From positions 32,001 to 96,000 of the IMG/VR virus record IMGVR_UViG_3300028886_000058: a stretch of DNA of 64,000 nt; one strand, given 5' to 3'. The DNA comes from a virus. Its lineage: Duplodnaviria; Caudoviricetes. Of the stretch, positions 1 to 18,697 are shown in pieces; the stretch's first letter is position 1, and each line of letters begins with the position of its first letter. The notes below the pieces were generated by a model. That model was not told the DNA's origin and did no database searches. It worked only from the letters and a program-made list of their open reading frames with translations. Both the position numbers and the translations under genes were made by a program.

Positions 1-6
1 ACCATA

Positions 7-28
7 CCGTTTATTGCGACCTTTAAGT
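7..28. repeat. Putative recombination site A (CC-GTTTATT-GCGACC-TTTAAGT)
   Basis: Near-identical to 4550-4571. Overlaps the stop codon of ORF 23..979. Confidence 0.5.
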
Positions 29-979
29 TGATAGGCATTGCACCTTAAACTCCGCAAGCTGTTCCGCTGTCATGTTAATCGGCAAGACAGCCCCAGAATC
101 ATTTGGATCTGTTTTCCACACAACAACCACAGCGTTATATCCGCTTGGCACTTCAAACTCAAGATTGTTTTCATACGACCAAGTGTAATCGCTTGCGGTT
201 TCTGTGTATCTCTTTCTGTCAGCGATATAATACTGCGATCCGTTTGCATTCTCGTTAGTATTATTTGCTCGTGTTGTTGTATCAAAGAATATTGCTCTTG
301 CACCATAGCTTGCATTCAGACCGATGCATTTTATTTTTGCTGTCCCTGTCGGTATTTCCATAGGAACGGGATAACCAATGTTCTCATATACACGCTTTTG
401 ATTAGATCCTGCATCTCCATTTGTTAATTCTGTTGGAGTTGCCATTTGATAGTTATATCCGGAATCAGCTTTGTTTATTGCCATGCTTGCACAAAGCAGC
501 TCCCCGTCATAGCTTTGCACAGCGTTCATCATTGTCAAATAACCATTGTATTCTGTATGACCGGTGTATCCGATATTGCAGTTCGTCTTTGTGAAATTGT
601 TGTTTCCGCTTTGGTTCGGGTCTGTTAGCGTGTTTGCTATAACAATCCCTGTCAGGTATGTGTCTACACTTACAACAACGGAACATGTATCAGAATACGA
701 TCCACTTGTTGCATTAATTGTACAGGAACCTACACCAACTGCCGTGACAAGTCCGTTCGTTACTGTTGCCACGCTTTCATCAGAAGAACTCCATACAACA
801 GGGTCAACAGAATTTGACGGCGTTACCGTTGCAGACAGTAATGTCGTATCTCCTATTGTAGTTATTTCTGCTGAAGAAGGTGAAACATCAATTGCAGTAG
901 TATGCGCTCCGTCAAATGAAATGGTTGTCACCTTGTTTGTTGAAAAATCCGCGCCTTTAATAACCAAAGCCTTTGCCAT
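23..979 (-). CDS. Ig-like (Big_2) domain virion/fibre accessory protein
   Basis: N-terminal half has LSATVTPSNSVDPVVWSSSDESVATVTNGLVTAVGVGSCTINA, a typical Big_2 pattern. Likely start is ATG 979 after GGAGGGAG. Confidence 0.7.
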   Translation of the reverse strand: MAKALVIKGADFSTNKVTTISFDGAHTTAIDVSPSSAEITTIGDTTLLSATVTPSNSVDPVVWSSSDESVATVTNGLVTAVGVGSCTINATSGSYSDTCSVVVSVDTYLTGIVIANTLTDPNQSGNNNFTKTNCNIGYTGHTEYNGYLTMMNAVQSYDGELLCASMAINKADSGYNYQMATPTELTNGDAGSNQKRVYENIGYPVPMEIPTGTAKIKCIGLNASYGARAIFFDTTTRANNTNENANGSQYYIADRKRYTETASDYTWSYENNLEFEVPSGYNAVVVVWKTDPNDSGAVLPINMTAEQLAEFKVQCLST

Positions 980-981
980 GA

Positions 982-2976
982 TTACTCCCTCCAATCCAAC
1001 TTAATGAATCCGTCACCGATTTCGTTTTCATAAACAATTCTTCCGATTGCATCCGTTGCGCTGTTTATCACAACCATGCTACCGCTGGACAAACCCACAT
1101 AATCGCCAAGATTGAAGGATGTAATCCCAACCCTGTCCGTTCTGACATAACCGCTCACTTGGATGTATGCGTCTGTGCTGTCCTCATATACGACCACGCC
1201 ATGCGCCGTATCAGCACTTGTTGCTGTTCTCCACTTCGGGCCATTTTCAGTATCGGCGTACCACTCTACAACATCCCCAACGGAAAGGTCTGTCCTCGGA
1301 TCAATCACGATATCGCCTGTGTTATAAAGCATTCCGGTTGGAAGGTCATAAAGCGGAGATTTTCCACATACACCCATAACCCTTGCGTGTGAAACGCTGT
1401 CAGGCATTGTGCTTCTGATCCACATGAAGTCGCAATCTATGAACGTATACACACTTTTCCCGGGCTGGGTTTCTTCACTGATAGAAGAATCACCAATTCT
1501 GAACCCATGCCCTTTGCAATGCACAAGCCGACATTGCAATCTGTAATTCTGTACTGCACTTGCATGAAGACCCGCATTTTCTCCGAAGTCGCAATCAATG
1601 AACTCATAGTAACCACCACTTATCGGACATCCTGCCCCGTATGTGGTTTCCGGACTGTATGCAATGTTATACCCACGGAAGATGCAGTTTTTTACCAACC
1701 GTTTCAAATGCTTCGCCCCGTTGAACTGCCAATCATCATGCACACAGTAACGGAGATTTGTTGCGATCACAGTAAGGTTTTCAATGGAACTTGTCCCTTG
1801 CAGATTAAGTGTACTGATTTGTCCTCTGTATTTTTGCGTCCATTCTGTTGTATCAAGGTATCCATTCAGCACGATTTCGGAAGGATCACCAATTCCTACA
1901 AGGCTCATACCATTTAGCAGTTTCGGGCCGACAAAGCCTTCCTGTGTTGACGGGGAAGTAGGATCGTCATCGTCATGGATATTTGCGATCTCTTCGTCCG
2001 TATAATCGTCAAGCACATCATATGTGCCTGGATAGATTTCAATCCTGTACGGATTCAGCACATCATTCGCCGTCAAACCTATTGCTTCAAGGCAATCCTT
2101 CAGATTCGTATAATTGCCCGTCCCGTCCTTTTTGATTGTTACGACAGTAGGCTCAATCGGAACATCCCCAAGAACAGACAGCTCAAATGTGATATCCAGC
2201 GTTCGAGAAAATGCAGACGATGAATAAACACCGGAAATCGAATTACAATCCGTTGTTACAATGTGTTCATAATATGCAGAATCACCCCGGACAAAAGATG
2301 CGATTTCCTTGCTACCTTCATAATATGTGACGGGCGAACCATACTCCCACGGCTTTGCTCCGTATTCCATGTGCAGAACAACCTTCTGCCCTTTTTTGAA
2401 AGATCTGTTGATTGTCAACGATAGCGCCGTCCTGTTGAACGATCCTGTTACTGAATACGTTGTGTATCTCCGTCCGTCAAACTGCTTTACAATGAAACCA
2501 CCATCGGCAAACCTTGCAATAGCGTTCCCATTCGTGTCGGTAATGTCTATATCAGGATCAGTTTCTTCCGTAGCCTTGACAATTACATCTTGCGTCCCGG
2601 CATCCGAACTGTCAAAATTCTTTGTCTGAATATGCCCGCCAGCAAGACGCAGAATAACGTTTCCGTTTGCATCCGAAATATCAAGATCAACATCTGTTTC
2701 TGTGCTGTCTTTCTGTTCCGGCAAACCGTTAATTTCGTTCAATAAATTGCTATGATCCGTCGCATGTTTGTCAGCACTAACTACCTTATCGGTATCTCCA
2801 ATACCAGCTGTGTCGTCAATTTCAACACCGCCATTCTGATCCATCCAAACAGGATTCAGACTATTATTAAGTCCGAGCACCTGACCTTCAGTCCCTACTG
2901 TGGCAGGCGCATTAAGTTTTTTTATAATATCTTTATAAAGATCTCCGCTTAATTTAATAGATCCTGTTACTGCCAT
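982..2976 (-). CDS. Tail fibre/spike protein with pectin-lyase-like beta-helix C-terminal region (possible depolymerase)
   Basis: N-terminal fibre module IDDTAGIGDTDKVVSADK. VVTIKKDGTGNYTNL...IEIYPGTY is the usual cap of right-handed beta-helix enzymes, followed by IENLTV/VKNCIF/FIDCDF rungs. Confidence 0.6.
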   Translation of the reverse strand: MAVTGSIKLSGDLYKDIIKKLNAPATVGTEGQVLGLNNSLNPVWMDQNGGVEIDDTAGIGDTDKVVSADKHATDHSNLLNEINGLPEQKDSTETDVDLDISDANGNVILRLAGGHIQTKNFDSSDAGTQDVIVKATEETDPDIDITDTNGNAIARFADGGFIVKQFDGRRYTTYSVTGSFNRTALSLTINRSFKKGQKVVLHMEYGAKPWEYGSPVTYYEGSKEIASFVRGDSAYYEHIVTTDCNSISGVYSSSAFSRTLDITFELSVLGDVPIEPTVVTIKKDGTGNYTNLKDCLEAIGLTANDVLNPYRIEIYPGTYDVLDDYTDEEIANIHDDDDPTSPSTQEGFVGPKLLNGMSLVGIGDPSEIVLNGYLDTTEWTQKYRGQISTLNLQGTSSIENLTVIATNLRYCVHDDWQFNGAKHLKRLVKNCIFRGYNIAYSPETTYGAGCPISGGYYEFIDCDFGENAGLHASAVQNYRLQCRLVHCKGHGFRIGDSSISEETQPGKSVYTFIDCDFMWIRSTMPDSVSHARVMGVCGKSPLYDLPTGMLYNTGDIVIDPRTDLSVGDVVEWYADTENGPKWRTATSADTAHGVVVYEDSTDAYIQVSGYVRTDRVGITSFNLGDYVGLSSGSMVVINSATDAIGRIVYENEIGDGFIKLDWRE
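2726..2747. repeat. Putative recombination site B (CC-GTTAATT-TCGTTC-AATAAAT), inside ORF 982..2976
   Basis: Imperfect inverted 7-bp arms around a 6-bp spacer. Encodes LLNEING on the minus strand. Matches site D. Confidence 0.5.
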
Positions 2977-2992
2977 ATTCTAATCACCTTCC

Positions 2993-4465
2993 TTATTCAG
3001 GGTTAACGTCAGTAATAAACAGCGTTATTGAACCACTTGGTGCCCCCGGCAAAATCATTATGGAAATGGCTACATTCGAGCTGTTCAGCGTATAGCTAAG
3101 ACTTGTATAGTACTTTTCTGTAGCGCTGTTATATCCGATCACGTTTGACTTGTCAGACAGCCTATTCCTTACAAGGTTAACGCCCACATTTGCGTACCTC
3201 GGTGTGTCGCCAGAGTTAGCCATAACTGGAACAGTAACACTAATTACGTTCGTGTTGTCTTTCCATATAGGATTCCCGAAAGTATTTAACGAGAGAAACT
3301 GACCCGTTGTCCCTGCAACAGAAGGCGCATCAAGCTTACCGCTGATGTCTGGTATATCACTCGAATCGGCTTTATCAGATAATTCGCTTACAATCTTATC
3401 TGCACTCCAAATCTTATCAGTGTCACCAGATCCAGCCGTATCATCTATTGGAATGGAAGGGATGTCTGTAATTTTTGCTAGTTTTGTCCCACCAGAACTA
3501 TCGTCGTTACATCCGACATACACATCACCGGAAAGTCGTTCATTACCGTTCCAGTCAAGTGTACGGGCATTCTTTTTTGCTGATGAAGCTGATCCTTTAC
3601 CAACAATCTCTATATAATTTCCTCTATTAGAAGCTGAAGCCGTTGATGGGTCTGCAATGTTATATGATCCAAATGCATGCTGATATGCATGGTTCGCTAC
3701 TGTACCCATTCCTTCAGCATGTGAATATGTTCCGCTTGCGGTTGTAGTATATCCTTCTGCATGAGCAGCGGTTGCAGTCGCTTTAGTAACATATCCCTCT
3801 GCATGTGAATATTTTCCACTTGCCGTCGTAGCCATTCCTTCTGCGTGAGAATATTGTGCTGAAGCAGTCGTTGTGCCGCCTTCAGCATGTGCTCCTTCAG
3901 CAGATGCTGTTGTTGAAGTGCCTTCTGCGTGTGCTCCATCTGCAGTAGCGGATGCTCGATGTCCTTCTGCATGAGCTCCATAAGCAGAAGATCCAGATCC
4001 AGAATTCGCTCTAGTTTGATATCCTTCAGCGTGGTCAGCTTTTCCCAACGCACCACGTCCTGTATCTCCTATGCCTTCAGCGTGGCTGTATTCACCAGAA
4101 GCTATAACAGATGAACCAAACGCAAAGCTACCAGTTCCTGTGTTTCCTGATCTTCCACGACTAAGCGTAGTGTCTAAAATAGTATTTTCTTTATCTGCTT
4201 TGTTGGAAATATCTACAGTTGTCCAAGATCTTCCGCCTTCACCATCTGTAGAAAGTACCTGACCATTAGTTCCTTCTTCGGAAGGTTCATTTATTTTTGA
4301 ACTAAGTTCGTTATATGTTTTGTCTGCAGACCAGACTTTGTCTGTATCTCCTTGACCAGATTCGTCGTCAATAATTGCGACTGAAGTTTCTGATATTCTT
4401 TTACGGAGATCTTTATATAATACTTGTCCGTCTGCAAGAGTCATTAATTTTTTAAGTATATCCAT
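2993..4465 (-). CDS. Fibre/adhesin with YadA-like head (Hep/Hag-type) repeats
   Basis: About 10 tandem repeats of xHAEGxxTxAxx (mostly 14 aa) and two IDD..G.GDTDK.WSADK modules. Start ATG 4465 after GAGGTG. Confidence 0.7.
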   Translation of the reverse strand: MDILKKLMTLADGQVLYKDLRKRISETSVAIIDDESGQGDTDKVWSADKTYNELSSKINEPSEEGTNGQVLSTDGEGGRSWTTVDISNKADKENTILDTTLSRGRSGNTGTGSFAFGSSVIASGEYSHAEGIGDTGRGALGKADHAEGYQTRANSGSGSSAYGAHAEGHRASATADGAHAEGTSTTASAEGAHAEGGTTTASAQYSHAEGMATTASGKYSHAEGYVTKATATAAHAEGYTTTASGTYSHAEGMGTVANHAYQHAFGSYNIADPSTASASNRGNYIEIVGKGSASSAKKNARTLDWNGNERLSGDVYVGCNDDSSGGTKLAKITDIPSIPIDDTAGSGDTDKIWSADKIVSELSDKADSSDIPDISGKLDAPSVAGTTGQFLSLNTFGNPIWKDNTNVISVTVPVMANSGDTPRYANVGVNLVRNRLSDKSNVIGYNSATEKYYTSLSYTLNSSNVAISIMILPGAPSGSITLFITDVNPE

Positions 4466-4496
4466 ATGCTCACCTCGCATTATGTTATAAGAGCAT

Positions 4497-4524
4497 AAAA
4501 AATGGCAGTTTTACGGATCTGCCA
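4497..4524 (-). terminator. Probable intrinsic terminator
   Basis: Minus strand TGGCAG-atccgtaaaa-CTGCCA followed by TTTTTT. Confidence 0.55.
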
Positions 4525-4549
4525 ACCGAAATAAGTTAGTTATGTATTA

Positions 4550-4571
4550 CCGTTAATTGCGACCTTTTAAT
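4550..4571. repeat. Putative recombination site C (CC-GTTAATT-GCGACC-TTTTAAT)
   Basis: Near-identical to site A. Overlaps the stop codon of the small ORF 4567..4668. Confidence 0.5.
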
Positions 4572-4668
4572 TGCCAGAATGCCGCAGTAAAATAACTAAA
4601 CAGATTACACATTCAAGCAGAACGGTTGCAACCGCTCCCGTTATAATCCCACGGATAAAGTCCGTCAT
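4567..4668 (-). CDS. Small hydrophobic peptide, 33 aa (not in ORF track)
   Basis: MTDFIRGIITGAVATVLLECVICLVILLRHSGN. ATGA overlap with the upstream stop codon. One transmembrane-like stretch. Confidence 0.5.
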   Translation of the reverse strand: MTDFIRGIITGAVATVLLECVICLVILLRHSGN

Positions 4669-5003
4669 TCTTCGGTTTCCTCATTGGGTTCCGGTTCCGG
4701 GGGTGTCATGTCCGGGAAAGCACCCTTGCTGTCACGCATGATCTGCCGTCCGTCCGCACGGGTCAGAGTGACCGTCCACATGGCACGGTTGTTCGCCGTG
4801 AGGAAAGCAGATACACGGCTGTAGAATTCTGCCTGTGCAACTTCCAAAGCACGGGATTCGTCCCCGTTGGGGTTCTGCTCTGTTGCTCCATAGTTCCGTG
4901 AATCATAGTTCTTCGGATAGTCCGGTACAACGGACATAATCCCTTCCGGGTGAGAATCGGAAACAACCACCTGCGTTGCGTTTACTGTGAAAATGTTCCT
5001 CAT
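4665..5003 (-). CDS. Hypothetical protein in fibre cassette (possible fibre chaperone)
   Basis: 112 aa, RBS GAAAGGA, acidic PE-rich C-terminus. Confidence 0.6.
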   Translation of the reverse strand: MRNIFTVNATQVVVSDSHPEGIMSVVPDYPKNYDSRNYGATEQNPNGDESRALEVAQAEFYSRVSAFLTANNRAMWTVTLTRADGRQIMRDSKGAFPDMTPPEPEPNEETEE

Positions 5004-5025
5004 GTTTATTACCGTCCTTTCTGAT

Positions 5026-5691
5026 TTAAGTTACCGGAGCAACGTATGTCCCGTTCAATGTTTCATAGCCGAATTCTCCAGTACCATCGTTCGTCAAAAA
5101 TGTTCCAGTGATTATGTTGTAAACCCCGACTTTGTTGTCGGATTTTCTCATGCACGGGATAAATATCCCTTTCCCAACTACTTCAGCATATTTTAGTTTC
5201 AATCTCGTTGTGACTGAAGTTTTGCTGTTATAGTTGAATAATTGATACTGTTTAAGTGTTGGCGAATATCTGTCCCATCGACCTTCATATTCATACACAA
5301 CACCGTCAAAAGTATATGTTGTATTGATTGCGTTTGCTTCTACTTCATAAAATGTGTTGATATCCATTAGCGGTCTTGTGCCACTACCATCGCTAGCTCC
5401 TATATATATAGTTAGAGGTTTTTGTACGTATGGTGATTGTCTTGTTAATGATCCAATTCCGAGTGCCCACATACCCGTTCGTCCTGCAAAGATAGCAGAA
5501 TCTTCATTAGAACCTCCCAATGTGCAAGCAAAGGTAGCTCTTATAATATCATTCATGTCGGATTGGTAAGCATCCGTGTTTATGAAATGGTTTCCATTCG
5601 CTTCAATATATTTAAGTTCGACATATCCGGCAGGAAGCAAGCCCGTTTTCTGCATTGCCAATAACCGTCTGCGGATTCCGTTTACGTCCAC
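5026..5691 (-). CDS. Putative receptor/carbohydrate-binding beta-sandwich tail protein
   Basis: LPAGYVELKYIE..G...INT and FIPCMRKSD..VGVY...F.TN.GTGEF pattern recalled from Firmicutes phage tail modules. GTG start overlaps the end of the upstream gene. Confidence 0.5.
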   Translation of the reverse strand: MDVNGIRRRLLAMQKTGLLPAGYVELKYIEANGNHFINTDAYQSDMNDIIRATFACTLGGSNEDSAIFAGRTGMWALGIGSLTRQSPYVQKPLTIYIGASDGSGTRPLMDINTFYEVEANAINTTYTFDGVVYEYEGRWDRYSPTLKQYQLFNYNSKTSVTTRLKLKYAEVVGKGIFIPCMRKSDNKVGVYNIITGTFLTNDGTGEFGYETLNGTYVAPVT

Positions 5692-8579
5692 GATCCCGCC
5701 ACCCCCAGACATCCGTCCATGATGTTGATTTCATAGGTTGTGTTGGCATCCAAACTGGACGGATCGAATCCGTTCGCCCACCGCATTGTCATTCCTGTCG
5801 GTGGAGTAACTGTCAGAACTGTTGCCGTACTACCGGATTCAAATGTTACATCAATACACCCGGAAGACGGAACAACGATGGTCAAGGTTGAGACCTCGCC
5901 GCAGACGTATCTGACTCCGGCTTTCGCCGTGATGGACGGGGTAGTGCCGCTGACGGAAACAGGGGCATTGAGCATACTGCTGATTGCTGAAAGCGATTTC
6001 TCCGGGTATGTTCCAACTGTTACCGTATCATTCTTTAAGTCCTCTCCTGCCAACTTTGACAACCCATAATAAAGTGCATAGGTCAAATATGCTGGCATTA
6101 TAGGACATAACGAATTTGTCCCCTGTTTTATTTGATTAACGGTTGACCCTTCTACCTTGAGATTCCCGTTAGCATCAATATTTACACCTTTTGTTGCATC
6201 AATTTTAGCAACACCAAGAACAGAAGTCCCTGCAACAGGGACATTTGCAACACCCTGTGATACAACCGAAACATTATTAACCTTTACGTCCGAAACCCCA
6301 CCACCACCGGACGGTGTAGACCAAACAGGGTCAAGGTTGCTATCAAGGGAAAGCACCTGCCCCGCTGTCCCTGCGGTTTCCGGTGCATCCTGTTTGCCGT
6401 TTATTTGGTTCAATAAACTGCTATTCATATCAGTCAGTTTGTCGGCACTAAACGTTACATCCGTGTCTCCGGCTCCAGCAGTATCGTCAATGCGCGTTAC
6501 ACCGAGCATGCTCTGAATAGCGGATTTGGCTTCATCGGTATATGTGCCGACAGCATTGGAGGATGCGCTTTGAGTAGCATCACCTGCAGCCTTTGCTAAT
6601 CCATAAAATGCGGCCTCATGTTGTGTATTTGGAACAATAGGGCGTTTATTATTGGATGCGGGTGTTTTGATATCGCTACTTGTCGCAGGAGCAATATATA
6701 ACATATTATATGTGCCATTACGATATATGCCAGTTGTTGTACTTGAATTGTTTCCGGCACTTACAACACCAATTTGATTTAACCCGGCAAGAGGAATATT
6801 TGCCACGCCGATTTCATTAACAATGCTCGTGCCGTTAATCTGCACATCGCTAATTCCGTATATGTTTATTTGCCAATCCTGTGCCCACGGCAATTTCGAT
6901 AACATCAATGTGCTAAGACCACCAGACCTAACCGGATCAAACGCTGATCCCATAAAAGCAATAAATTGCCCAACGTTTGGTATATTTTCTATAACAGATA
7001 TCGGAAGCTCTGATTGAACATCATTGAGAACAGCTACAGCCTTGATCTTTACGCCATTATCGTGAGCAGTTACAATATCTGAGTCTGTCGTATCGCAAAC
7101 AACCGTGTAAATAGGTTCACCGGGTGGAACTACTCCGCTTCTCGACACAAGCGTAAACGTCACAGTAAGCCCGGGCTTATCTTCCTTGGTTGCGAGGGCA
7201 GTGTCTACGTAACCTTTATTGGCGGCATCTGTAGAAGCAGTTGGATTAGCAAGCTGTGCGATTTTCATGTTCTGAGCTGTATAAACACCGTTCATAGACA
7301 GCATTGGCTCAGTCTGCATTACTGGTATAGTTTCGCTTCCAGAAGAATGAGCCAAAACTATATAAATTATACCTTCAATAGTAACTGTTGTACTGACAAA
7401 GAATATATATGTGCCACGTTGTCTTAATCCAAATATTTGTGCTTTAAAACGTTGCCCGTCACCAACTATAATAGCTTCTATATTCTTTCCACTATCGTAT
7501 GCTTGTCCAATTTCTTCGATAGTCTTATCACAGGTTGCTGTATTATTACCAGTAATAGTATATGTTGCTATCAGATCGGGCTTATCTTCCTTCTCGGCAA
7601 GAGAAGTATTTACACTTGAGAATTCTGTAGTCAGTTTGTCAGCAGACCAAGTAGAGGTTGTATCTCCGGCTCCTCCGTTATCGTTTATGACTTCAAGAGA
7701 AACCGGGATATAAGTAAGTCGCCATGACGGTATGATTGAAGCGCCGAGTAATTCGATGTCGATAAATCCTTCTGAATTTACATCTATTACTCTGCCGCCA
7801 AACACCGCAAGAGTATAAGTCGGACCTCCACCGGGCAACGCTTGGGACTCCACATAAACGGTATTTAGCTCAGAAGGATAGCGCATACTATCATTTCCTG
7901 GTTCCAGAACGTTTGCGATAGCCTTTATACGCTTACCGACATTGTAAGCAGCACCTATTTCATTGAGAGTCCTGTCACACTCGACTTCTGCGGAGTCACC
8001 AGACTGGTCAGGTGTAATAGTAAACGTTACAACATACGGAGCATCCTCTTTTTCTGCAAACTCTGTAGTCAGCTTATTCGCAGACCATGCCCTGTTGGTA
8101 ACACCCGCTCCGGCTGTATCATCAATATAAGATGGTAGTTGCGAAAAAGGAATCTTTCCTTCTTCATCTAAAGTTGCAACACCGTTTGCAACACCTTTTT
8201 CTGATAAGTCTATTTTATTTAAAACTTGCGTTAAAATTTGAGAAGAAATATCGTCTCCAATGAATGGAAGATTATTTAATGGAGTGTTTCCATTTCCTAT
8301 TTTAACGCCTGGATAAGCGACATTATTTATAACATTTCTATCTGTATATATAACAATCTCACCAAGCTCTGGAGTGATTGATTGATTTTCCCAGTAAGTT
8401 GTTGTGTTAATATTCGTTTTTGACAATAGTAAATCAGCATAAGCCATATCGCCTTGTATTGTAATGCCGCCTAAAGAAGGTAGATTTCTCAATTCGTTAT
8501 AATCTGCCGATGCAACAAATGCAGATGTTCTTATTTTTATTTGAGAAGAATTTATTGGGTTGATATTAAATTTATCCAT
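5682..8579 (-). CDS. Modular tail fibre protein
   Basis: N-terminal GEIVIY...GVKIGNG...LPF motif, GVATLDEEGKIP motif, three KED.P..TF/Y..CDxT domains, three WSADK-type modules and two DV.(I/V)N..S.V/YGL.K modules. Confidence 0.7.
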   Translation of the reverse strand: MDKFNINPINSSQIKIRTSAFVASADYNELRNLPSLGGITIQGDMAYADLLLSKTNINTTTYWENQSITPELGEIVIYTDRNVINNVAYPGVKIGNGNTPLNNLPFIGDDISSQILTQVLNKIDLSEKGVANGVATLDEEGKIPFSQLPSYIDDTAGAGVTNRAWSANKLTTEFAEKEDAPYVVTFTITPDQSGDSAEVECDRTLNEIGAAYNVGKRIKAIANVLEPGNDSMRYPSELNTVYVESQALPGGGPTYTLAVFGGRVIDVNSEGFIDIELLGASIIPSWRLTYIPVSLEVINDNGGAGDTTSTWSADKLTTEFSSVNTSLAEKEDKPDLIATYTITGNNTATCDKTIEEIGQAYDSGKNIEAIIVGDGQRFKAQIFGLRQRGTYIFFVSTTVTIEGIIYIVLAHSSGSETIPVMQTEPMLSMNGVYTAQNMKIAQLANPTASTDAANKGYVDTALATKEDKPGLTVTFTLVSRSGVVPPGEPIYTVVCDTTDSDIVTAHDNGVKIKAVAVLNDVQSELPISVIENIPNVGQFIAFMGSAFDPVRSGGLSTLMLSKLPWAQDWQINIYGISDVQINGTSIVNEIGVANIPLAGLNQIGVVSAGNNSSTTTGIYRNGTYNMLYIAPATSSDIKTPASNNKRPIVPNTQHEAAFYGLAKAAGDATQSASSNAVGTYTDEAKSAIQSMLGVTRIDDTAGAGDTDVTFSADKLTDMNSSLLNQINGKQDAPETAGTAGQVLSLDSNLDPVWSTPSGGGGVSDVKVNNVSVVSQGVANVPVAGTSVLGVAKIDATKGVNIDANGNLKVEGSTVNQIKQGTNSLCPIMPAYLTYALYYGLSKLAGEDLKNDTVTVGTYPEKSLSAISSMLNAPVSVSGTTPSITAKAGVRYVCGEVSTLTIVVPSSGCIDVTFESGSTATVLTVTPPTGMTMRWANGFDPSSLDANTTYEINIMDGCLGVAGSWT
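6397..6418. repeat. Putative recombination site D (CC-GTTTATT-TGGTTC-AATAAAC), inside ORF 5682..8579
   Basis: Perfect 7-bp inverted repeat around a 6-bp spacer. Encodes LLNQING. Confidence 0.55.
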
Positions 8580-8583
8580 TTTA

Positions 8584-8952
8584 TCACCCCTCATTTGAAG
8601 CCCATGTGACTTCTCTTGTTAAGATAAATTGACCACATACTGTGGATTTTATAATGTTTTCATGAATCAACTCTATGTCAAATTCATAAGATTCATTTGA
8701 TTTACAAATTGGAAGATTGTTAGTGTCTTCTGGATTAATTTTAATTCTATAAGTTCCCGTATCGATTTTAGAAATTCCACCAGTACTTAACTTTTTTTGA
8801 ATAATAAAATTCTGATCGCTATATTTTTTCTTTACTGTAAAGAAAATTTCTTGAAAATCTATATCCATAATTTTATCAGGTTCTTCATCTATTACAGTAA
8901 ATTCTATATAATAAATATCTCCTCTAGGCATTGCAATTCTCATAACATTCAC
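8584..8952 (-). CDS. BppU N-terminal-like baseplate/fibre adaptor
   Basis: RGD...F.V, FFTVKK, I.PEDT..L, Y.FDIEL, G.F.LT.EVT pattern. Confidence 0.55.
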   Translation of the reverse strand: MNVMRIAMPRGDIYYIEFTVIDEEPDKIMDIDFQEIFFTVKKKYSDQNFIIQKKLSTGGISKIDTGTYRIKINPEDTNNLPICKSNESYEFDIELIHENIIKSTVCGQFILTREVTWASNEG

Positions 8953-10343: not shown

Positions 10344-11494
10344 GCTACTGTCCACCCCTTTGCTGTTGCTACTGCAAGTTCTGATGAAGATAATTTTGCT
10401 TCGGAAATATTGCTTAAAGTAAGCGTTTTTCCAGATACTTCTCCAAGTTTTGCAATTATTCCATTAACAAGACTATCATGGCTTAAACTAACGCACGCTG
10501 CCAAATTTATTGATTCGACTATATTATCTCCCAAATAGCAATCTTCAAGAGCATAGCAAGAACTAAACATTGCTCCTGTACTCGTACATTCAGACATATC
10601 ACATCCAGACATATCTAAAGATTTTAATAGTCTACAACCAGAAAATGTGTAATACGTGCTAGTGATTTTAAGTCCATCGGTACGAATGCTTATACTTTTA
10701 ACGTTTTGGTTATCCTGAAAAGTTTGCCCCAATGTTATACTACCAGTTGTACTTGACAAGCCATCAATATTTATAGACTTTGAACTTCTGCTTCCAAATG
10801 TTCTGCCATTAACAGATTTAATATTTTTCGCAACAATATCTATATTATCCCCATTAATGCCGCAACTACCACTATTTATTAATCGCCCAGCATTTTCAAA
10901 ATCTCCATCATTGATGATTATAGATTTCAAGTTAGGGCAAGGAGCAAATCCGTAGCCTATAGACATAAGAGGTGAAATATATAATCTTGCCCGTTCAAGC
11001 ATAATAGTGGATATTCCACCGCTGCCATTTGAATATAAATCAATAGCAGTAGCTGAATATGTTTTTCCATACATCCATAGACATGGTTGATTACTACCAT
11101 TATTATTGCTTGTATTATACATTTTTTTTGCAGCATTTGTTGCGAAACAAAATTGTCCGTTATTCAAATTAGACAATTTTACAACAGCATATTTACAATC
11201 ATCTGGTAAGCTTACAAACACATTAGGACTGGAACGTTCAATTGTAGAGTCATCGAATTCTGATAAAACCCCATTCTTATACGATGCAACAGATAGACTT
11301 GCTGTAGAATAACCGCCAACTGAGAATCCAGCATGCTTAACTTCGGTCTCACAATCATATAAGAAATAAATGCATGCTTCATTACCAGACGGAAGAGGCA
11401 AAGCTTCAATATCTGGCCAATCTTCAGGCTTAACCCATACATTAGGATCAGTCTTTGTCACGACACCAACCGGACTATTCCCAAGATATATCAT
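10340..11494 (-). CDS. BspA/DUF285-like leucine-rich-repeat protein
   Basis: W.KP.DWPDI N-terminus. Repeats TFSGCRLLKSLDMS..D.S..TS...MFSSCYAL. C-terminus A.AKGWTV. Confidence 0.6.
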   Translation of the reverse strand: MIYLGNSPVGVVTKTDPNVWVKPEDWPDIEALPLPSGNEACIYFLYDCETEVKHAGFSVGGYSTASLSVASYKNGVLSEFDDSTIERSSPNVFVSLPDDCKYAVVKLSNLNNGQFCFATNAAKKMYNTSNNNGSNQPCLWMYGKTYSATAIDLYSNGSGGISTIMLERARLYISPLMSIGYGFAPCPNLKSIIINDGDFENAGRLINSGSCGINGDNIDIVAKNIKSVNGRTFGSRSSKSINIDGLSSTTGSITLGQTFQDNQNVKSISIRTDGLKITSTYYTFSGCRLLKSLDMSGCDMSECTSTGAMFSSCYALEDCYLGDNIVESINLAACVSLSHDSLVNGIIAKLGEVSGKTLTLSNISEAKLSSSELAVATAKGWTVA

Positions 11495-14400
11495 GCCAAT
11501 CTCACCACCTCTACGTTGTGGATGCCAATCATGCTCTGAATAGCGGCTTTAGCGTCATCGGTGTATGTTCCCACAGGATTGGAGCTTGCAGATTGTGTGC
11601 TATCTCCTGCCGCCTTTGCAAGTCCGTAAAATGTTGCATTGTGCTGATTTGACGGAACAATCGGCATATTCGTATTTGCCCCGGCTTTTATTCGATCGTC
11701 TGTTGCCTTTGCCGTTGCAATGACTCCTTCATTGCCAGAGGATGTCATTATCAGAATTCCTGTAGCCCCCGTATTTGTTGGGTGCTGTCGAACAACCCCT
11801 AATGCGGACAAACTCGCAATCGGAATATTTGCAACACCAGACGAAACAACGCTCGTACCATTCACCTGTACGTCCCCAACCTTACCAGATAATGCCGTAT
11901 TCATTTCGGCAACTGTCGGTACGGAGTATTCGGCTACGTCATCGTTGTTAATCCATAGCTTATTCTCTTCTTCAGTAGGCTCGGTATCAGAAACGATAAC
12001 CACATTGGATGCTTCTTCGGTGGAAGGAACATCGAGCATGGACTGGATAGCGGTTTTAGCGCCATCTGTGTAAGTACCGACAGGGTTGGAAGATTCGCTT
12101 TGTGTTGAATCGCCACTCGCTTTTGCAAGCCCATAGAAAACAGAAATGTCTTGGTTATACGGAGTGATTGAACGATTATTTGAATTCCCTGTTTTAAGCG
12201 TTGCGTCATTTCTATTTGCGCCTTGCACAGATAGAATTCCGCTCGACGACATTGCTAATCCATTTCCTATATAAGCAACACCGGGAGTCGAACTGCTCGC
12301 AATTGGAATATTCGCCACACCATTACTGACGATGCTTGTACCATTGATCTGAATATCAGTGGGATTTTTGAAACTTATACTCCAGTCTTGCTGTCCCATA
12401 AATGAAGCTTTTGTAAGAACAACATCGCTGAATCCAACATTGCTCAAACCAGAACCAATAGAGTAAAGATCGATAGATCTTCCCATGAACATTATAAGTG
12501 ACCCGACATTCGGAACTGTTTCTATCATGTATAATGGCAACTCAACGCGCATTCCAGCAATATCTGCAACGGCTCTTATTTTTTCTCCATTATCATGAGC
12601 ATTCACGATATCGGAGTCAGTTGTATCACATGTAACCGTATAAGGGTCAGTCTCTTCTTGACCTGGCGCAGTAATAGTTTTATTTGTTATAACAGTAAAC
12701 GTCACTTCAAGTCCGGGTTTATCTTCCTTGGTTGCAAGAGCAGTGTCTACATAATTTTTCGTAGTAGCATCTCCGGAATCAGTTGGCTCTCCAAGATATG
12801 ATATTCTTTTGGAATACGCGATAAATGAAGAGTTTCTATCAAGCATGTCTGTTGCTATAGTTTGATAGAAATAAACTTCCCAAGTTGCACTTGAAGTATT
12901 GCCAAATACTCTTATGAAAACTGGAGCGTCTTCTGGGCTATATGTCGAATCCGCCATAATAGTAGTAACTTGCCCACTTTGACTAAAAAGTAAACGCGCA
13001 GGTAAGGCTGTTTGACCGTATAGAGAAAAGAACGCTTCTACCTTCTTATTATTGGCATACGCTTGTGCAAGTTCTGCTTGAGTTTTGTCACACGACACAG
13101 TAAAAGCAGGAGTCTGCGATGACAAATCCGGAGTAAATGTGAATATCGCCGTAAGATCAGCTTTATCTTCCTTTGTCGCAAGAGCCGTGTCAACATAACC
13201 TTTATTGGCAGCGTCTGCGGAATTAGTCGGATTTGCAAGCTGCGTAATTTTCATGTTCTCTGCTGAATAAACGCCATTCGCAGATAGCATTGGTCTAAAT
13301 TGTATCGCAGGTATAGTTTCACTCCCGGAAGAATGCATCAAAACAATGTGTATAATTCCTTCAAAACCTATCGTTGCACTAACAGCGCACAAATATATAT
13401 CAGGGCGTGGGTTCAATATCATTGGTTGTGCATTAACTCGTAGCCTGTCAGCAACTATAACAGCTTCTATTGTTTTCCCACTGCTATATGCTTGTCCAAT
13501 TTCTTCGATAGTTTTATCGCAAGTTGCTGTATCCGTTCCAGTAATAGTATATGTTGCTATTAGATCGGGTTTGTCTTCTTTTCCATCAAGTGCGGAAGAG
13601 ATAGTTGTCTGAATGCAATTTGTATTCGGAAGTATATAATCATTTACAGCAATATTAGAAGTTGCCTTATAAAGCTTGTTATCATAAATGAAAATATCCC
13701 CAATAGCATATGCGTTGTCAGAAGTATTATCTTCTTCTATAGTTGCAATCATTGCATTGCTGTTTGAAGCAATTGTTTTTAATTCATTTCCAACAGTGAC
13801 TTCGTTCCATTTTGATGAATTAAAAGCTTCGAAAGCAGCGATATCCGTATTTGCTTTATAAAATTTATTTTCATTTATACAATAGTCTCCAGCTTTAACC
13901 GGGAAAAGACCAGTATTAAAAGCGTATGTTTTAGCGAAAAGTCTTAAAATATCTAATTGTGTTTTCTCTCGACTTATGCTTCCATCGCTATTATAACCTA
14001 AGGATATTGTTGAAAAACCGCCTTCCATTGAAGCTGTTTTTACAAAACTTACCATGCTCGGAAGGACAGCCATAAGCTCAAGTCCCATCCCCATGCCCGG
14101 GGCAACTTGAACTATGCACCCATCACATTTTCCATTTGAAGCAGCATCATAAACTTCTTGGAAAGTTAAATTACATACATATTCACCAAGATTAGATCCT
14201 GGAGAGAACACAGGTGTGATATGAAGTTCCGTTTTATCCGCTTTAGAGCTGATGTCAACTTCAGTACTACCAATCATTTCCCATGAATTATTTACATAAA
14301 TGTATTCATCGTAAATATCATGAGTGTCCGGAATCTTAGGCACAAAATAGATAGTATGCGTTTTGATATTTTGTGTCGGAAGTTCCTGCACGATCTGAAC

Positions 14401-14757
14401 ATCGAATGAATTAATATCTTCAAGCACAGAGGATATCTTATTAGCAGACCATGTTTTATTTAGCCCATTAGAATTATCATCAATAATTCTCGTGGCATAG
14501 TCGGACATCTCGTCATCAACACTAGTGGATGCCCAATGGGTATTATCCCATTCTTCAGACGATGGGATATCCACGGTTGCTCTATATAAACCGCCGTCAT
14601 AAATACACAGCGTTCCTCTATTTACTGGAAAAGTAACGTCTTCGTATTTTGGAGCGATTATACTATATAAATCATCTCCTACTTGATTTAAAGAGATAAA
14701 TTCCCCAGTAATGGGATTTTTGTATTTCAGTACCCCAGTTTTAATTGATACTGGCAT
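11491..14757 (-). CDS. Modular tail fibre protein, 1088 aa
   Basis: Three short aromatic modules (YDGGLYRA..WD..HW type), IVQELP...IYFV...YDEYIY...WE.IG module, four CDxT/CNLT domains, two D.Q.NGTS.V+FYGLAKA modules. Confidence 0.7.
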   Translation of the reverse strand: MPVSIKTGVLKYKNPITGEFISLNQVGDDLYSIIAPKYEDVTFPVNRGTLCIYDGGLYRATVDIPSSEEWDNTHWASTSVDDEMSDYATRIIDDNSNGLNKTWSANKISSVLEDINSFDVQIVQELPTQNIKTHTIYFVPKIPDTHDIYDEYIYVNNSWEMIGSTEVDISSKADKTELHITPVFSPGSNLGEYVCNLTFQEVYDAASNGKCDGCIVQVAPGMGMGLELMAVLPSMVSFVKTASMEGGFSTISLGYNSDGSISREKTQLDILRLFAKTYAFNTGLFPVKAGDYCINENKFYKANTDIAAFEAFNSSKWNEVTVGNELKTIASNSNAMIATIEEDNTSDNAYAIGDIFIYDNKLYKATSNIAVNDYILPNTNCIQTTISSALDGKEDKPDLIATYTITGTDTATCDKTIEEIGQAYSSGKTIEAVIVADRLRVNAQPMILNPRPDIYLCAVSATIGFEGIIHIVLMHSSGSETIPAIQFRPMLSANGVYSAENMKITQLANPTNSADAANKGYVDTALATKEDKADLTAIFTFTPDLSSQTPAFTVSCDKTQAELAQAYANNKKVEAFFSLYGQTALPARLLFSQSGQVTTIMADSTYSPEDAPVFIRVFGNTSSATWEVYFYQTIATDMLDRNSSFIAYSKRISYLGEPTDSGDATTKNYVDTALATKEDKPGLEVTFTVITNKTITAPGQEETDPYTVTCDTTDSDIVNAHDNGEKIRAVADIAGMRVELPLYMIETVPNVGSLIMFMGRSIDLYSIGSGLSNVGFSDVVLTKASFMGQQDWSISFKNPTDIQINGTSIVSNGVANIPIASSSTPGVAYIGNGLAMSSSGILSVQGANRNDATLKTGNSNNRSITPYNQDISVFYGLAKASGDSTQSESSNPVGTYTDGAKTAIQSMLDVPSTEEASNVVIVSDTEPTEEENKLWINNDDVAEYSVPTVAEMNTALSGKVGDVQVNGTSVVSSGVANIPIASLSALGVVRQHPTNTGATGILIMTSSGNEGVIATAKATDDRIKAGANTNMPIVPSNQHNATFYGLAKAAGDSTQSASSNPVGTYTDDAKAAIQSMIGIHNVEVVRLA

Positions 14758-16089: not shown

Positions 16090-17003
16090 GACGCTACCCC
16101 CAAATCTGTGTAAATGGCAATGCCACCGATTATTTCCACTTCGTACATATGACCTGCTTGAAGAGTTTTATCTCCAACGCTTATAATGTTATCTATACCG
16201 TTGATAGTAATAGAAGTGACCGAACTTGAAGGACATGAGAACAGGAATTTGTAGACAGTATTTTCCGGAGTAAGGCTCTCACTCGCTGTATAAAGTGTCA
16301 AAGTAATAGATTGCTTCTCGCCAAACATCTTTATAAATGGGTATGGATACAGTCCTGCTGTAATTGTTGTTCCACCATGCCGTGATATATAAGGCGTTCC
16401 CTGTGTATTCATTGACATCATCGTTGGATAGAATTCTTCTGGATAACCATGTTCTTCATCAGCAGCATAACAAATGACACTTATAACAAGTAAGTTGACA
16501 TAGGTTTGGATATCCGGGTTTGTACTTTGGAATACAATTCTATCATCAACATAAAACGTTGCCTGTATAATAAAAGGTAATGTTTTTTCTGCTCCGGGAT
16601 ATTGCGAAAAGGGATTAAGTATGGCGTAAGAACATTTTCCTGCACGAATTGCTTCCAGTATCTCATTGAATGTTAGATTACATTCAAGTTCATAGTTTTC
16701 GTTTTCTGTAAAAACAGGGACTACTATCGAGTCTCCCCAGACGGGATTGAGATTATCGTCAAGCTTGAGAATTTGTCCGCTTGTACCCATAGCAGATGGA
16801 GCATCTTGCTTTGTTTGGAACTCTCGGTATGTTGGAACTTCGTAGTCTTCACCAGTTTCATCAGTATCAATCCAAAGTTTAGTGGTTGAAGTCTGTGGCT
16901 CACTATTCCCAACAACAACTTGGCTTTCTGCTCGTCCACGGAGGTCGTCATACAGGAGCATGCCGTCTCCGAGATTCATGTTTTTATTTACTTGTACGCT
17001 CAT
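16086..17003 (-). CDS. Fibre-associated protein
   Basis: N-terminal L.DG..LY.DL motif shared with 2993, EP.....LWID motif, G..GQ.L.LD.NLNPVW module, one CNLT domain. Confidence 0.55.
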   Translation of the reverse strand: MSVQVNKNMNLGDGMLLYDDLRGRAESQVVVGNSEPQTSTTKLWIDTDETGEDYEVPTYREFQTKQDAPSAMGTSGQILKLDDNLNPVWGDSIVVPVFTENENYELECNLTFNEILEAIRAGKCSYAILNPFSQYPGAEKTLPFIIQATFYVDDRIVFQSTNPDIQTYVNLLVISVICYAADEEHGYPEEFYPTMMSMNTQGTPYISRHGGTTITAGLYPYPFIKMFGEKQSITLTLYTASESLTPENTVYKFLFSCPSSSVTSITINGIDNIISVGDKTLQAGHMYEVEIIGGIAIYTDLGVAS

Positions 17004-18697
17004 GCTCCCACCCTCGTTTCATATTCATCTATAATTGCCTGTGTCTCTTGAAGTGTCGCAACTTCAGGGACATCTTCCATAGTCGCAAGTTTAGTTCCGC
17101 CAGTAAAGTCATTGTTACAATTAACATATACATCACCAGTGAAAAGTCCATTGCCTGTTAATTCAGGATTGGCTTTAGGAGCTTTCAAATCAAATTCGCT
17201 TGTTAACTTATCTGCAGACCAAGTAAGAGTTGTGATTCCAGCTCCAGTAGTGTCGTCTATTATTCCTTCGCTAGGAATATATACACCGGTAAGCCATCCA
17301 GGCATAAAAGTTACACCAACTATTGAGATGTCATGCGGACCCTGTCTCTCATATATTTTACCAAAAAACGCAACAGTGTATTGGTTTACATCAAAAGAAG
17401 TCGCCGAAATACTAGATAGTTCTGTTGAAATTGTTGCCATACCATCCGAATACGTTGCAATTGCTTTTATGGTTTTTCCCTCGTTATATGCATTCCAAAC
17501 TTCAACAAGTGTTTTGTCACATGTTGTCGGATAAGACCCATGTTCATTGTCGTACGTAATACTAAAAGTGACTATAAATGGAGAGTCTTCTTTTCCAGCA
17601 AGAGCTGTGTCTATATATCCTTTTGTAGCTGCATCAGATGAAACTGTCGGAGCAGAAAGAGATGTAATTTTCTTATTTTCAGCAGAGAAGTTTCCACCAT
17701 CTATACTCGTTATTTGTCTAGCTGGTCTTACGATCCACGTATTATTTGGTGCACCAACGATACTAATATCAATTGCATAATCATCAAAAAATCTTCCAGT
17801 AACAATAGCCATATACATGGTAACTGTGCCACCCTGAGGATCTGGAAACTCATTAGACATCACATACAGTCCAGGTAGCTCAATTTGCATTTTTGGTAAG
17901 TCTTGATCGATTTCTAATTGCGCTATTGCTTTTATCTTTTTCCCTGAAAAAAAAGCTTCGCCAATTTCTGTAATTGTTTTATCTGCTGTTGCGGTAAGTG
18001 CATTACCATCTTGAACAAGTTCAAACGTAACAACAAGATCTGGTATATCTTCTTTTGTGTTTAATCTTGTTACTAAGTTATCTGCTGACCATGTTTTATT
18101 TAAAACACCAGTATCAGCTGTATCGTCTATTAAGTCTGTATATTCAGGATCTTTAATTGATGCAGTAGTAGTACCATTAACATCGGTAATGGAAATAGTA
18201 GTTACTTTGTCTTCTTTGGTTACTGTAGCAATAGGAGAGAAGCCGTCAAACTCACCTGACTCTTTAGCTTCTTCCAACGCTTCATTAATCGTATGCGGAA
18301 TATCTGCTAATGCAGCTTCCGCTCTTGTAATCCAGTCATCTATTGGATCAGGTATTTCACCAGATGGTAAAATACTTTTAAGAACTCTGTATTGTCCAAC
18401 ATATGACTTGACTACAACTTCGTCTTCAACAAAAGACAGTTGAAGCTCACCTTTTCCTTCATGAATCAAGTCCGAGTTTGTTACATCCCAGACTACTTCA
18501 TCCCCGTCTCTGGTTACAATAGTAGGGTAGGGTTCGCCTTCTGGAGGCTGAACTGTTAATGTAGCGAGAGCGTCGGGGTATTCTTCGAATATTTTTAGAC
18601 AGTCTATTCGAACCTGTGTGTGCAGATTTTCACCAGCAAAGCCTACGGGGATAGTAGCTTTAGCCAAGTCTGCAAGCCGTATGCTAACGGATCTCAT
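17000..18697 (-). CDS. Fibre/baseplate-upper (BppU-like N-terminus) protein
   Basis: G..GEN..T.V.ID N-terminus, AKESGEFDG motif, two KED.P domains, two WSAD modules. Confidence 0.6.
   Translation of the reverse strand: MRSVSIRLADLAKATIPVGFAGENLHTQVRIDCLKIFEEYPDALATLTVQPPEGEPYPTIVTRDGDEVVWDVTNSDLIHEGKGELQLSFVEDEVVVKSYVGQYRVLKSILPSGEIPDPIDDWITRAEAALADIPHTINEALEEAKESGEFDGFSPIATVTKEDKVTTISITDVNGTTTASIKDPEYTDLIDDTADTGVLNKTWSADNLVTRLNTKEDIPDLVVTFELVQDGNALTATADKTITEIGEAFFSGKKIKAIAQLEIDQDLPKMQIELPGLYVMSNEFPDPQGGTVTMYMAIVTGRFFDDYAIDISIVGAPNNTWIVRPARQITSIDGGNFSAENKKITSLSAPTVSSDAATKGYIDTALAGKEDSPFIVTFSITYDNEHGSYPTTCDKTLVEVWNAYNEGKTIKAIATYSDGMATISTELSSISATSFDVNQYTVAFFGKIYERQGPHDISIVGVTFMPGWLTGVYIPSEGIIDDTTGAGITTLTWSADKLTSEFDLKAPKANPELTGNGLFTGDVYVNCNNDFTGGTKLATMEDVPEVATLQETQAIIDEYETRVGA

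Follow-up and report, generated by a model that had tools for sequence, protein, structure and literature searches.

A short intergenic core and a conserved fibre linker mark the joints of what looks like ordinary recombination-driven swapping of host-recognition genes in a temperate cattle-gut phage

Fibre and tailspike genes set the host range of phages, and a locus in which such genes are bracketed by matching short sequences raises the question of how they are exchanged: by a dedicated recombinase acting on recognition sites, or by ordinary recombination at short boundary sequences. The locus considered here belongs to a temperate phage of the cattle gut (rumen) and lies at the left end of a 64,000-nucleotide (nt) window, the whole stretch of DNA that was analysed, which comprises bases 32001-96000 of virus record IMGVR_UViG_3300028886_000058 (record length, 124,601 bp). 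All of its genes lie on the minus strand, in the order fib1088, fib970, p228, p112, small34, fib495, fib664, and a gene for an immunoglobulin (Ig)-like protein, and they are followed, beyond the left edge of the window, by genes for an SH3-bearing endolysin, a second SH3 protein, more lysis-region genes, and a holin. An original prediction, made from the letters of the window, had described four related recombination-like sites in this locus, A to D, each with two 7-nt arms around a 6-nt spacer, and had proposed that they bound two insertable or excisable fibre-tip cassettes, B-A and D-C, in a receptor-swapping system. We find instead that the sites pair as A with C and B with D, that A and C are the exact ends of a block of whole genes that is missing from one relative and replaced in another, and that B is a mosaic junction inside a fibre gene. 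Taken together, the locus looks like a case of ordinary recombination-driven swapping of host-recognition genes, and not like a new enzyme-driven switch.

Re-reading of the sequence and pattern scans placed A (ACTTAAAGGTCGCAATAAACGG on the gene strand), B (ATTTATTGAACGAAATTAACGG), C (ATTAAAAGGTCGCAATTAACGG), and D (GTTTATTGAACCAAATAAACGG) exactly where they had been reported, all in a single orientation. As described, A and C each overlap the stop codon of the last gene of a block (TAA at 23-25 and at 4567-4569, respectively), and B and D are in frame, encode LLN(E/Q)ING, and stand at the 3' end of a 95-nt IDDTAG...SADK module. The sites are real, but they do not form a single family. In a scan of all 22-mers of the 124.6-kb genome, A and C agree at 19 of 22 positions, whereas the best unrelated 22-mer reaches only 16/22, and B and D also agree at 19 (25/28 over a longer stretch); the best non-self match in the genome is A for C and D for B. 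The likeness of A and C extends into the terminator region that comes next, and B and D both lie inside a homologous coding module. Across the two groups, B scores 16/22 against C where the background reaches 15, and D does no better than background. With the best matches running A-C and B-D and the cross-family scores near background, the four sites resolve into two pairs. The two families do have AATWAACGG in common, and A, B, and C share up to CG[C/A]AAT[T/A]AACG(G), the first 11 bases of which, ending ...AACGT, also occur in both B-like sites of a related locus, L005, found in a complete 62-kb phage (genome G001).

The proposed anatomy of two inverted arms around a spacer fared poorly outside D. 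There the arms are perfectly inverted (7/7), as had been stated, but arm complementarity falls to 3/7 in A, 5/7 in B, and 4/7 in C. The spacer GCGACC is common to A and C; those of B (TCGTTC) and D (TGGTTC) are unlike it and unlike each other. The degenerate pattern put forward for scanning the genome, CCGTTWATT-N6-WWTWAA, recovers B, C, and D but misses A. Blocks B-A and D-C had also been described as GC-rich, and their values (0.443 and 0.461) do exceed that of the whole record (37.7%, or 0.377), but the stretch between them also reaches 0.423, so that GC content is mildly higher across the whole 1-6400 stretch and not confined to the two proposed blocks.

Alignment of A and C with two copies from L005 delimited a 16-nt invariant core, T-W-AAAGGTCGCAAT-W-A, outside which the sequences are unrelated on both sides, and the flanks on each side vary independently across the four copies. 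What follows the core is an intrinsic terminator: after core A, AAACGG opens a 14-pair hairpin that is followed by a U-run (dG -15.9 kcal/mol, z -4.9), and a hairpin and U-run are also present after core C, as predicted from the sequence, and after the second core copy of L005. Core C together with its terminator (4497-4571, a 76-nt unit) is 95% identical to L005 14866-14941, and this unit of core and terminator closes the block on its left side in the window but on its right side in L005. The complete records of the present phage (G000) and of the L005 phage (G001) contain two cores each, no more, all in the same orientation; a third relative, the phage that carries locus L135, has none.

That the two cores bound a genuine insertion or deletion became evident from public metagenome runs (X3, X5, and X7), which were compared as assembled contigs against G000:C1:29001-41000; such a comparison shows alleles between samples, and contigs drop rare variants within one population. 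A contig of 6,808 nt (depth 11) from X5, a cattle-gut run of a study other than the source's, matches the lysis side up to window position 12 with 103 differences and 2 gaps over 3,012 nt (96.5% identity) and then jumps from 12 to 4556, omitting 4,543 bp; the two sides of the jump have 12 letters in common. The edges of the junction fall at 12|13 and 4555|4556, where a single chimeric core, with a C-type left half and an A-type right half, is followed by terminator A and the endolysin gene. A k=31 assembly is not misled by a 12-nt repeat, and at its flanks the contig departs from the window by 3-8%; it represents a different strain and not an artefact of the same data. An empty-site junction thus exists and joins A to C exactly. 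The notion of an insertable or excisable cassette survives in this form, with A and C as its exact boundaries, but the pairing that had been proposed does not: the unit of insertion or deletion runs from C to A, comprises whole genes (fib495, fib664, and the Ig-like gene), and sits between the fibre genes and the lysis genes. Variation in this block was seen only between strains, and the joint expected of a circular cassette, which would go back by 4543, was not seen among the X3, X5, and X7 contigs, in which rare variants are dropped. Whether the A/C event was an insertion or a deletion we infer rather than observe. In loci L135 and L138, p112 and a small membrane-peptide gene abut the endolysin gene directly, with neither core nor block, and these gap-free arrangements mark fib495, fib664, and the Ig-like gene of the window as extra.

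A second cargo occupies the slot in L005. The 62-kb phage that carries this locus is otherwise unrelated; its fibre region alone matches, in patches of 83-100% nucleotide identity. Directly after its small34 homologue, the two cores of L005 enclose a different 2.3-kb cargo, encoding a 151-aa fibre-like protein, a 380-aa protein, and a 128-aa protein, beyond which come the lysis genes and the integrase gene of that phage. Run X3, whose strand convention was set from paralogous pieces in the source contig, adds a further context: its homology to the window ends just after GGTCGCAAT at A (12|13), with 26 unlike letters past it, and a piece also ends after GGTCGCAAT at C, with only 7 letters past that point. 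The core thus serves as a boundary in no fewer than three independent arrangements: the cargo of the window, the cargo of L005, and the context in X3.

A junction of another kind lies at B, inside fib664. The module that precedes it, IDD..G..SADK, is present in eight copies in six genes of the genome, each followed by a helix-and-proline linker such as ELSSKINEP or EFAEKEDAP. The 95-nt copies in fib664 and fib970 (IDDTAG.GDTD..SADK plus a short helix) are about 70% identical, with a peak at the B/D site, and the similarity ends immediately after that site. In X3, six contigs hold window 13-2747 with 9 differences over 2,418 nt (99.6% identity), and past this unit only unlike sequence was found, the 26 letters beyond 13 and 100 letters beyond 2747 (break at 2747|2748). 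Backbone pieces from the same run (small34 and p112) are only 90-94% identical to the window, a difference that points to recent transfer of the B-A unit. L005 shares window 2808-2722 at 83% and nothing past 2722, so that the X3 and L005 breaks have B itself in common, give or take 4 nt. Finally, P0136, a 741-aa protein of fib664's 90% cluster, matches fib664 at about 95% identity from immediately downstream of B, but its N-terminus is unrelated; its break falls, at the protein level, within about 10 aa after B. Site B is a mosaic junction in all three comparisons (X3, L005, and P0136), one of them at the protein level. Within L005 itself there are two B-like sites (TTATTGAACGCAATTAACGT), one in the main fibre gene and one in the slot fibre gene, and a 114-nt repeat, 92% identical between the two genes, begins exactly at them. 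This repeat was also considered as a diversity-generating retroelement pair, a candidate that was rejected since the mismatches are not adenine-specific.

Site D behaves differently. It is collinear at the protein level in L005 and in two further related loci, L141 and L152, and the fibre C-terminal domain and p112 reappear in the majority of 18 related loci, which together mark D-C as the most conserved backbone of the locus and not cargo; the contigs of X3, X5, and X7, in which rare variants are dropped, gave no near-identical cover of D and no contig joining distant parts of the locus at B or D. Of the two blocks proposed as cargo, then, B-A behaves as an exchange unit (in X3) and D-C as backbone, and breaks in homology, as predicted among relatives, are found at A, B, and C. 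Nor are all junctions tied to the sites. Joints without the motif occur at the terminator T-run, after SADK in X5 record 14, and at fib970 residue 879/880, and they indicate general mosaicism. More than 100 homologues of the fib664 beta-helix domain have unrelated N-termini, with starts of homology scattered over residues 17-142, and LLNxIN occurs in none of the first 70 homologues checked, many of which have a related peptide there (e.g. DLKSSIN..PE.KDS). AlphaFold modelling of fib664 (mean pLDDT, 80.5) places B at the end of a helix of residues 68-83, just before the beta-rich part, in a linker whose pLDDT is only low to moderate, about 41-67.

From these observations we consider it probable, though well short of certain, that accessory host-recognition genes have a hot slot here, at the fibre/lysis boundary, where short-boundary recombination proceeds with no dedicated enzyme. 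A and C would be two copies of an intergenic boundary cassette, the 16-nt core followed by its intrinsic terminator, and recombination between core copies would add, remove, or replace whole gene blocks. The recombination pathway, like the primary function of the core, is a matter on which we infer: the likely route would be general short-homology recombination between co-resident phages or prophages, with an excised circle as a possible intermediate, as has been proposed for the promoter-early stem-loop (PeSL) cassettes of T4-type phages. B and D would not be enzyme targets at all. They would code for the last part of the short helix downstream of a conserved fibre linker module, where an anchoring N-terminal part meets a receptor-binding C-terminal part. 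Because this linker stretch is conserved among otherwise unrelated fibre genes, it is proposed that crossovers there yield in-frame, working chimeras; fibre tips would be swapped at such linker crossovers, with the B-to-A unit as one example.

Several points weigh against this explanation. Sixteen nt is short for homologous recombination, and searches of the genome for RecT and ERF annealing proteins found none. The sharp homology edges on both sides of the short core, in several contexts, would look alike if the core were a site-specific site, and the element CG[C/A]AAT[T/A]AACG, present in both site families in one orientation, could be a common recognition element. There are also only two core copies per genome, and the core holds no recognisable sigma-70-type promoter, unlike the PeSLs. 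The X3 contigs, moreover, are short, have a depth of 2-5x, and may derive from more than one phage.

It is rather unlikely, in our judgement, that there is no exchange system here, such that the core is kept for a local function as a 3'-end or terminator element, LLNxING is kept for structure, the X5 allele is a one-off slippage deletion, and the breaks are merely the ends of conserved elements. Spontaneous deletion between 12-nt direct repeats is common, a genome holds just the two cores, and B and D do lie in a structurally conserved linker. The narrow distribution of the core, which is known from two phage lineages and runs X3 and X5, is likewise in keeping with such a reading: a 15-mer core pattern had at least 119 matches in a viral contig collection, all of them chance except the L005 contig, and an exact 20-mer retrieved from viral, metagenome, and genome collections the L005 contig plus three chance-like matches and no other related match. 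What speaks for a system nonetheless is the use of the core as a boundary in several independent arrangements, the displacement of the unit of core and terminator from the left end of one block to the right end of another, which means that it moved between contexts, and the near-identity of the B-A block in X3 next to a more diverged backbone.

Quite improbable is the mechanism originally envisaged, in which a site-specific tyrosine recombinase, supplied by the phage (its integrase) or by the host, acts on A to D and receptors are swapped by a direct-repeat shufflon or an integron-like process. It would accommodate the exact A x C junction allele, and the spacer shared by A and C would make these a compatible pair, which is the pair observed. 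The core is sharp-edged on both sides in four copies from two phages, homology also breaks off sharply at B-type sites, on one side or the other depending on the comparison, and the submotif common to both families could be read in the same way. There is also, as had been suggested, a tyrosine recombinase gene left of coordinate 1 (337 aa, window -6029..-5016, PF00589 with E 3e-15). This gene, however, is the single PF00589 gene, lies 5 kb from A, and appears canonical: the protein matches phrog_1 'integrase' (E 3.5e-41), shows a weak arm-binding-domain match, is encoded beyond the lysis genes, the usual place, and reaches 39.6 bits with the Xer/integron-integrase model, far below its cut-off of 220. 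The phage of L005 bears the same core and has an integrase only 22% identical, and the phage of L135 has an integrase and no core. All of this argues for an ordinary integrase. Apart from the fibre region, the two phages with cores have just three proteins in common, all of them weak matches of no known function, and no other recombinase or nuclease common to them was found; neither PF00589 nor PF00239 occurs in or beside the blocks, and a search for serine recombinases (PF00239) found none in the genome. The spacers of B and D, moreover, would block strand exchange between the partners that had been proposed, the cross-family likeness is close to background, and the junctions of fib664 homologues scatter and lack LLNxIN. 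A dedicated 7-6-7 mechanism, with inverted arms in D only and a canonical integrase as the one recombinase, is accordingly not upheld. We give as little credence to a wider version in which the core, and perhaps CG[C/A]AAT[T/A]AACG too, is a recombination target of a host-encoded or unrecognised enzyme and unrelated rumen phages share an integron-like pool of fibre cassettes that move as excisable circles; were the core indeed recognised by an enzyme, phages would have a cassette system of a new kind.

Short-boundary recombination of the kind favoured here has partial parallels in several known systems. The closest analogue appears to be the shuffling of PeSLs in the T4-type phages RB49 and phi1. 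In RB49, two PeSLs flank an open reading frame (ORF), phi1 has a single chimeric PeSL in that position, and recombination through a mini-circle was proposed (Arbiol et al. 2010, PMC2839356). The resemblance is twofold: non-essential genes are flanked by a short intergenic repeat that includes a terminator stem-loop, as at A, C, and the second L005 copy, and two copies around cargo in one phage correspond to one chimeric copy in a relative, as in the window (A and C) and X5. In contrast with a PeSL, which is about 100 bp in length and includes a strong sigma-70-type promoter, the conserved part here amounts to 16 nt plus a variable terminator, and no such promoter is recognisable in the core. 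PeSLs also number in the dozens, spread through hyperplastic regions, and carry ORFans as cargo, whereas the present system has two copies per genome, in temperate cattle-gut phages, and carries receptor-binding cargo. The block also resembles the morons of the HK97/HK022 concept, in that extra genes stand between neighbours that adjoin in relatives (L135, L138, and X5), with a terminator on each side and a GC content of 0.434 in the A-C block against 0.377 for the genome. Classical morons, however, have no repeated core as a boundary and usually carry lysogenic-conversion genes, not virion fibre genes; as for a promoter of its own, the candidate here is weak, with a 9/12 consensus match.

With the Rin shufflon of Bifidobacterium prophages (PMC6109161), the Min, Gin, and Cin systems (of p15B, Mu, and P1, respectively), and the R64 shufflon, the locus has in common short asymmetric repeats at in-frame N/C junctions of fibre genes and, as the outcome, a changed receptor-binding tip. 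In those systems, however, a dedicated invertase is encoded next to the locus, the sites are inverted, the C-terminal segments lack promoters, and inversion is seen within one population; here the only candidate is an integrase 5 kb off, the sites are direct, the genes are complete with their own starts, and variation is seen between strains only. An integron cassette would involve an IntI-type integrase and imperfect palindromes of the attC type, neither of which is seen, given the low score of the integrase and a core that is not palindromic. Of the hallmarks of a canonical tyrosine-recombinase core site, inverted arms are wanting in A, B, and C, and an identical overlap in both partners is found for A and C but not for B and D. 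What B resembles instead is the domain mosaicism of receptor-binding proteins (Smug et al. 2023, PMC10684548; tailspike modularity, PMC10408124), in which exchangeable C-terminal receptor-binding domains follow a conserved N-terminal anchor or linker and breaks fall at domain boundaries, with the difference that the junction here is placed, in three comparisons of which one is at the protein level, within about 25 nt at a defined linker motif.

These comparisons provide a natural series whose junctions are resolved to a few bases, from an empty slot through one cargo to a second cargo in an unrelated phage, and they capture a fibre tip moving between lineages at near-identity. They allow a direct test of whether the trade in host-recognition genes among gut phages is steered by short boundary sequences instead of dedicated enzymes. 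With the core and the LLNxING linker there are also defined joints at which to study how chimeric fibres remain functional. The coordinates of the elements and genes concerned are collected in Table 1.

Table 1. Elements and genes of the fibre/lysis boundary locus (window coordinates)
Feature	Position	Strand	Remarks
5' arm of intrinsic terminator after core A	1..12	(-)	hairpin and U-run span window 12 to -18
Core copy A	11..26	(-)	TTAAAGGTCGCAATAA on gene strand; overlaps Ig-like stop codon
Gene for Ig-like (Big_2) protein, 318 aa	23..979	(-)	PF02368, E 3e-12; structural/tail Ig-domain PHROGs; last gene of block
Accessory fibre block between cores	27..4553	(-)	repeat unit 4,543 bp; missing in X5 contig, L135, and L138
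fib664	982..2976	(-)	N-terminal fibre linker modules and right-handed beta-helix domain, tailspike/depolymerase-like
Site B	2726..2747	(-)	codons (N)LLNEING; end of helix 68-83 in fib664; mosaic junction
IDDTAG...SADK...LLNEING linker module of fib664	2726..2820	(-)	83% identical to L005 12771-12857
fib495	2993..4465	(-)	fibre protein; two IDD..G..SADK modules, SHAEG-type repeats; phrog_25468
Terminator hairpin (GGCAG...CUGCC) and U-run after core C	4497..4523	(-)	predicted
Core copy C	4554..4569	(-)	TAAAAGGTCGCAATTA; overlaps stop of 33-aa membrane-peptide gene
small34, 33-aa membrane-peptide gene	4567..4668	(-)	last backbone gene before slot
p112	4665..5003	(-)	conserved backbone gene; PEPEPE tail
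p228	5026..5712	(-)	accompanies fibre C-terminal domain in relatives
fib970, main modular fibre	5682..8579	(-)	
Site D	6397..6418	(-)	codons (S)LLNQING in fib970; paralogue of B
Third IDDTAG...SADK...LLNQING linker module of fib970	6397..6491	(-)	
fib1088	11491-14757	(-)	

Among the proteins encoded by the locus, fib664 has a C-terminal part whose model, by structure comparison, matches the folds of pectin methylesterase, K1 capsule lyase, and phage depolymerase with E values of about 1e-5. A sequence search of solved structures with fib664 gave no match, an IMG/VR search with it found no relative, and the same search with the endolysin returned distant relatives only. Pfam, PHROGs, and NCBIfam hold no family for fib664, p112, or p228, and an Rfam scan of the 12-kb stretch gave no match. 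As it accompanies the fibre C-terminal domain in relatives, p228 may be a fibre assembly partner. The SHAEG-type repeats of fib495 number about 10 and are degenerate; repeats of this family also fill a 932-aa fibre of L005. Close relatives differ in the length of the p112 PEPEPE tail (at about 4680-4700; L155 7687), with an 18-nt insertion in X5 and cluster members of 112-120 aa.

Further traces of exchange were observed in and around these genes. Window 4601-4718, covering the end of p112 and the start of small34, is 100% identical over 118 nt to L005 12383-12500, a degree of identity that indicates a very recent exchange between different phage lineages. In X5 record 14, homology to fib495 (L155 6395-7451, corresponding to window 3395-4451) stops right after the second SADK module, and the same contig has an adjoining 33-nt stretch similar to the C-terminal part of fib970 (L155 about 8917-8949, window about 5917-5949), which suggests what may be another domain swap at the linker module. 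fib970 and fib1088 contain paralogous segments of 76-80% nucleotide identity (7177-7589 versus 13163-13578, and 6507-6610 versus 11530-11633), and fib1088 ends about where fib970 enters its third linker module. Of the six genes with the linker module, two that carry it as IDD..G..WSADK lie further upstream and encode proteins of 565 aa (17000-18697) and 398 aa (22195-23391). As to the record as a whole, 182 bp are shared by its ends (G000:C1:1-182 is identical to 124420-124601; both lie outside the window); although listed as "linear", it probably represents a complete genome, either circularly assembled or terminally redundant.

Other functions considered for the core were rejected. No sigma-70-type promoter was found in either core, the 9/12 match lying downstream of the C terminator only, and a role as the attP core of the integrase was set aside as AATWAACGG has no copy near the integrase gene. 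The chance-like matches to the 20-mer (the core plus AACGGTA) probably have a simple origin. At L153 1283-1302, in an unrelated metagenome contig, it spells the start of a gene like that for glyceraldehyde-3-phosphate dehydrogenase (GAPDH), MAKVAINGMG, and two Deltaproteobacteria contigs among the three chance-like matches (L159 and L160) probably match for the same reason; owing to this GAPDH-like start, chance matches are to be expected by anyone scanning with the core motif. Lastly, a 15-codon ORF (MVILTIPFYLFSQRR) runs from window 4-6 leftward to about -44, spans terminator A, and ends in the ribosome-binding site of the endolysin gene; it is probably fortuitous.

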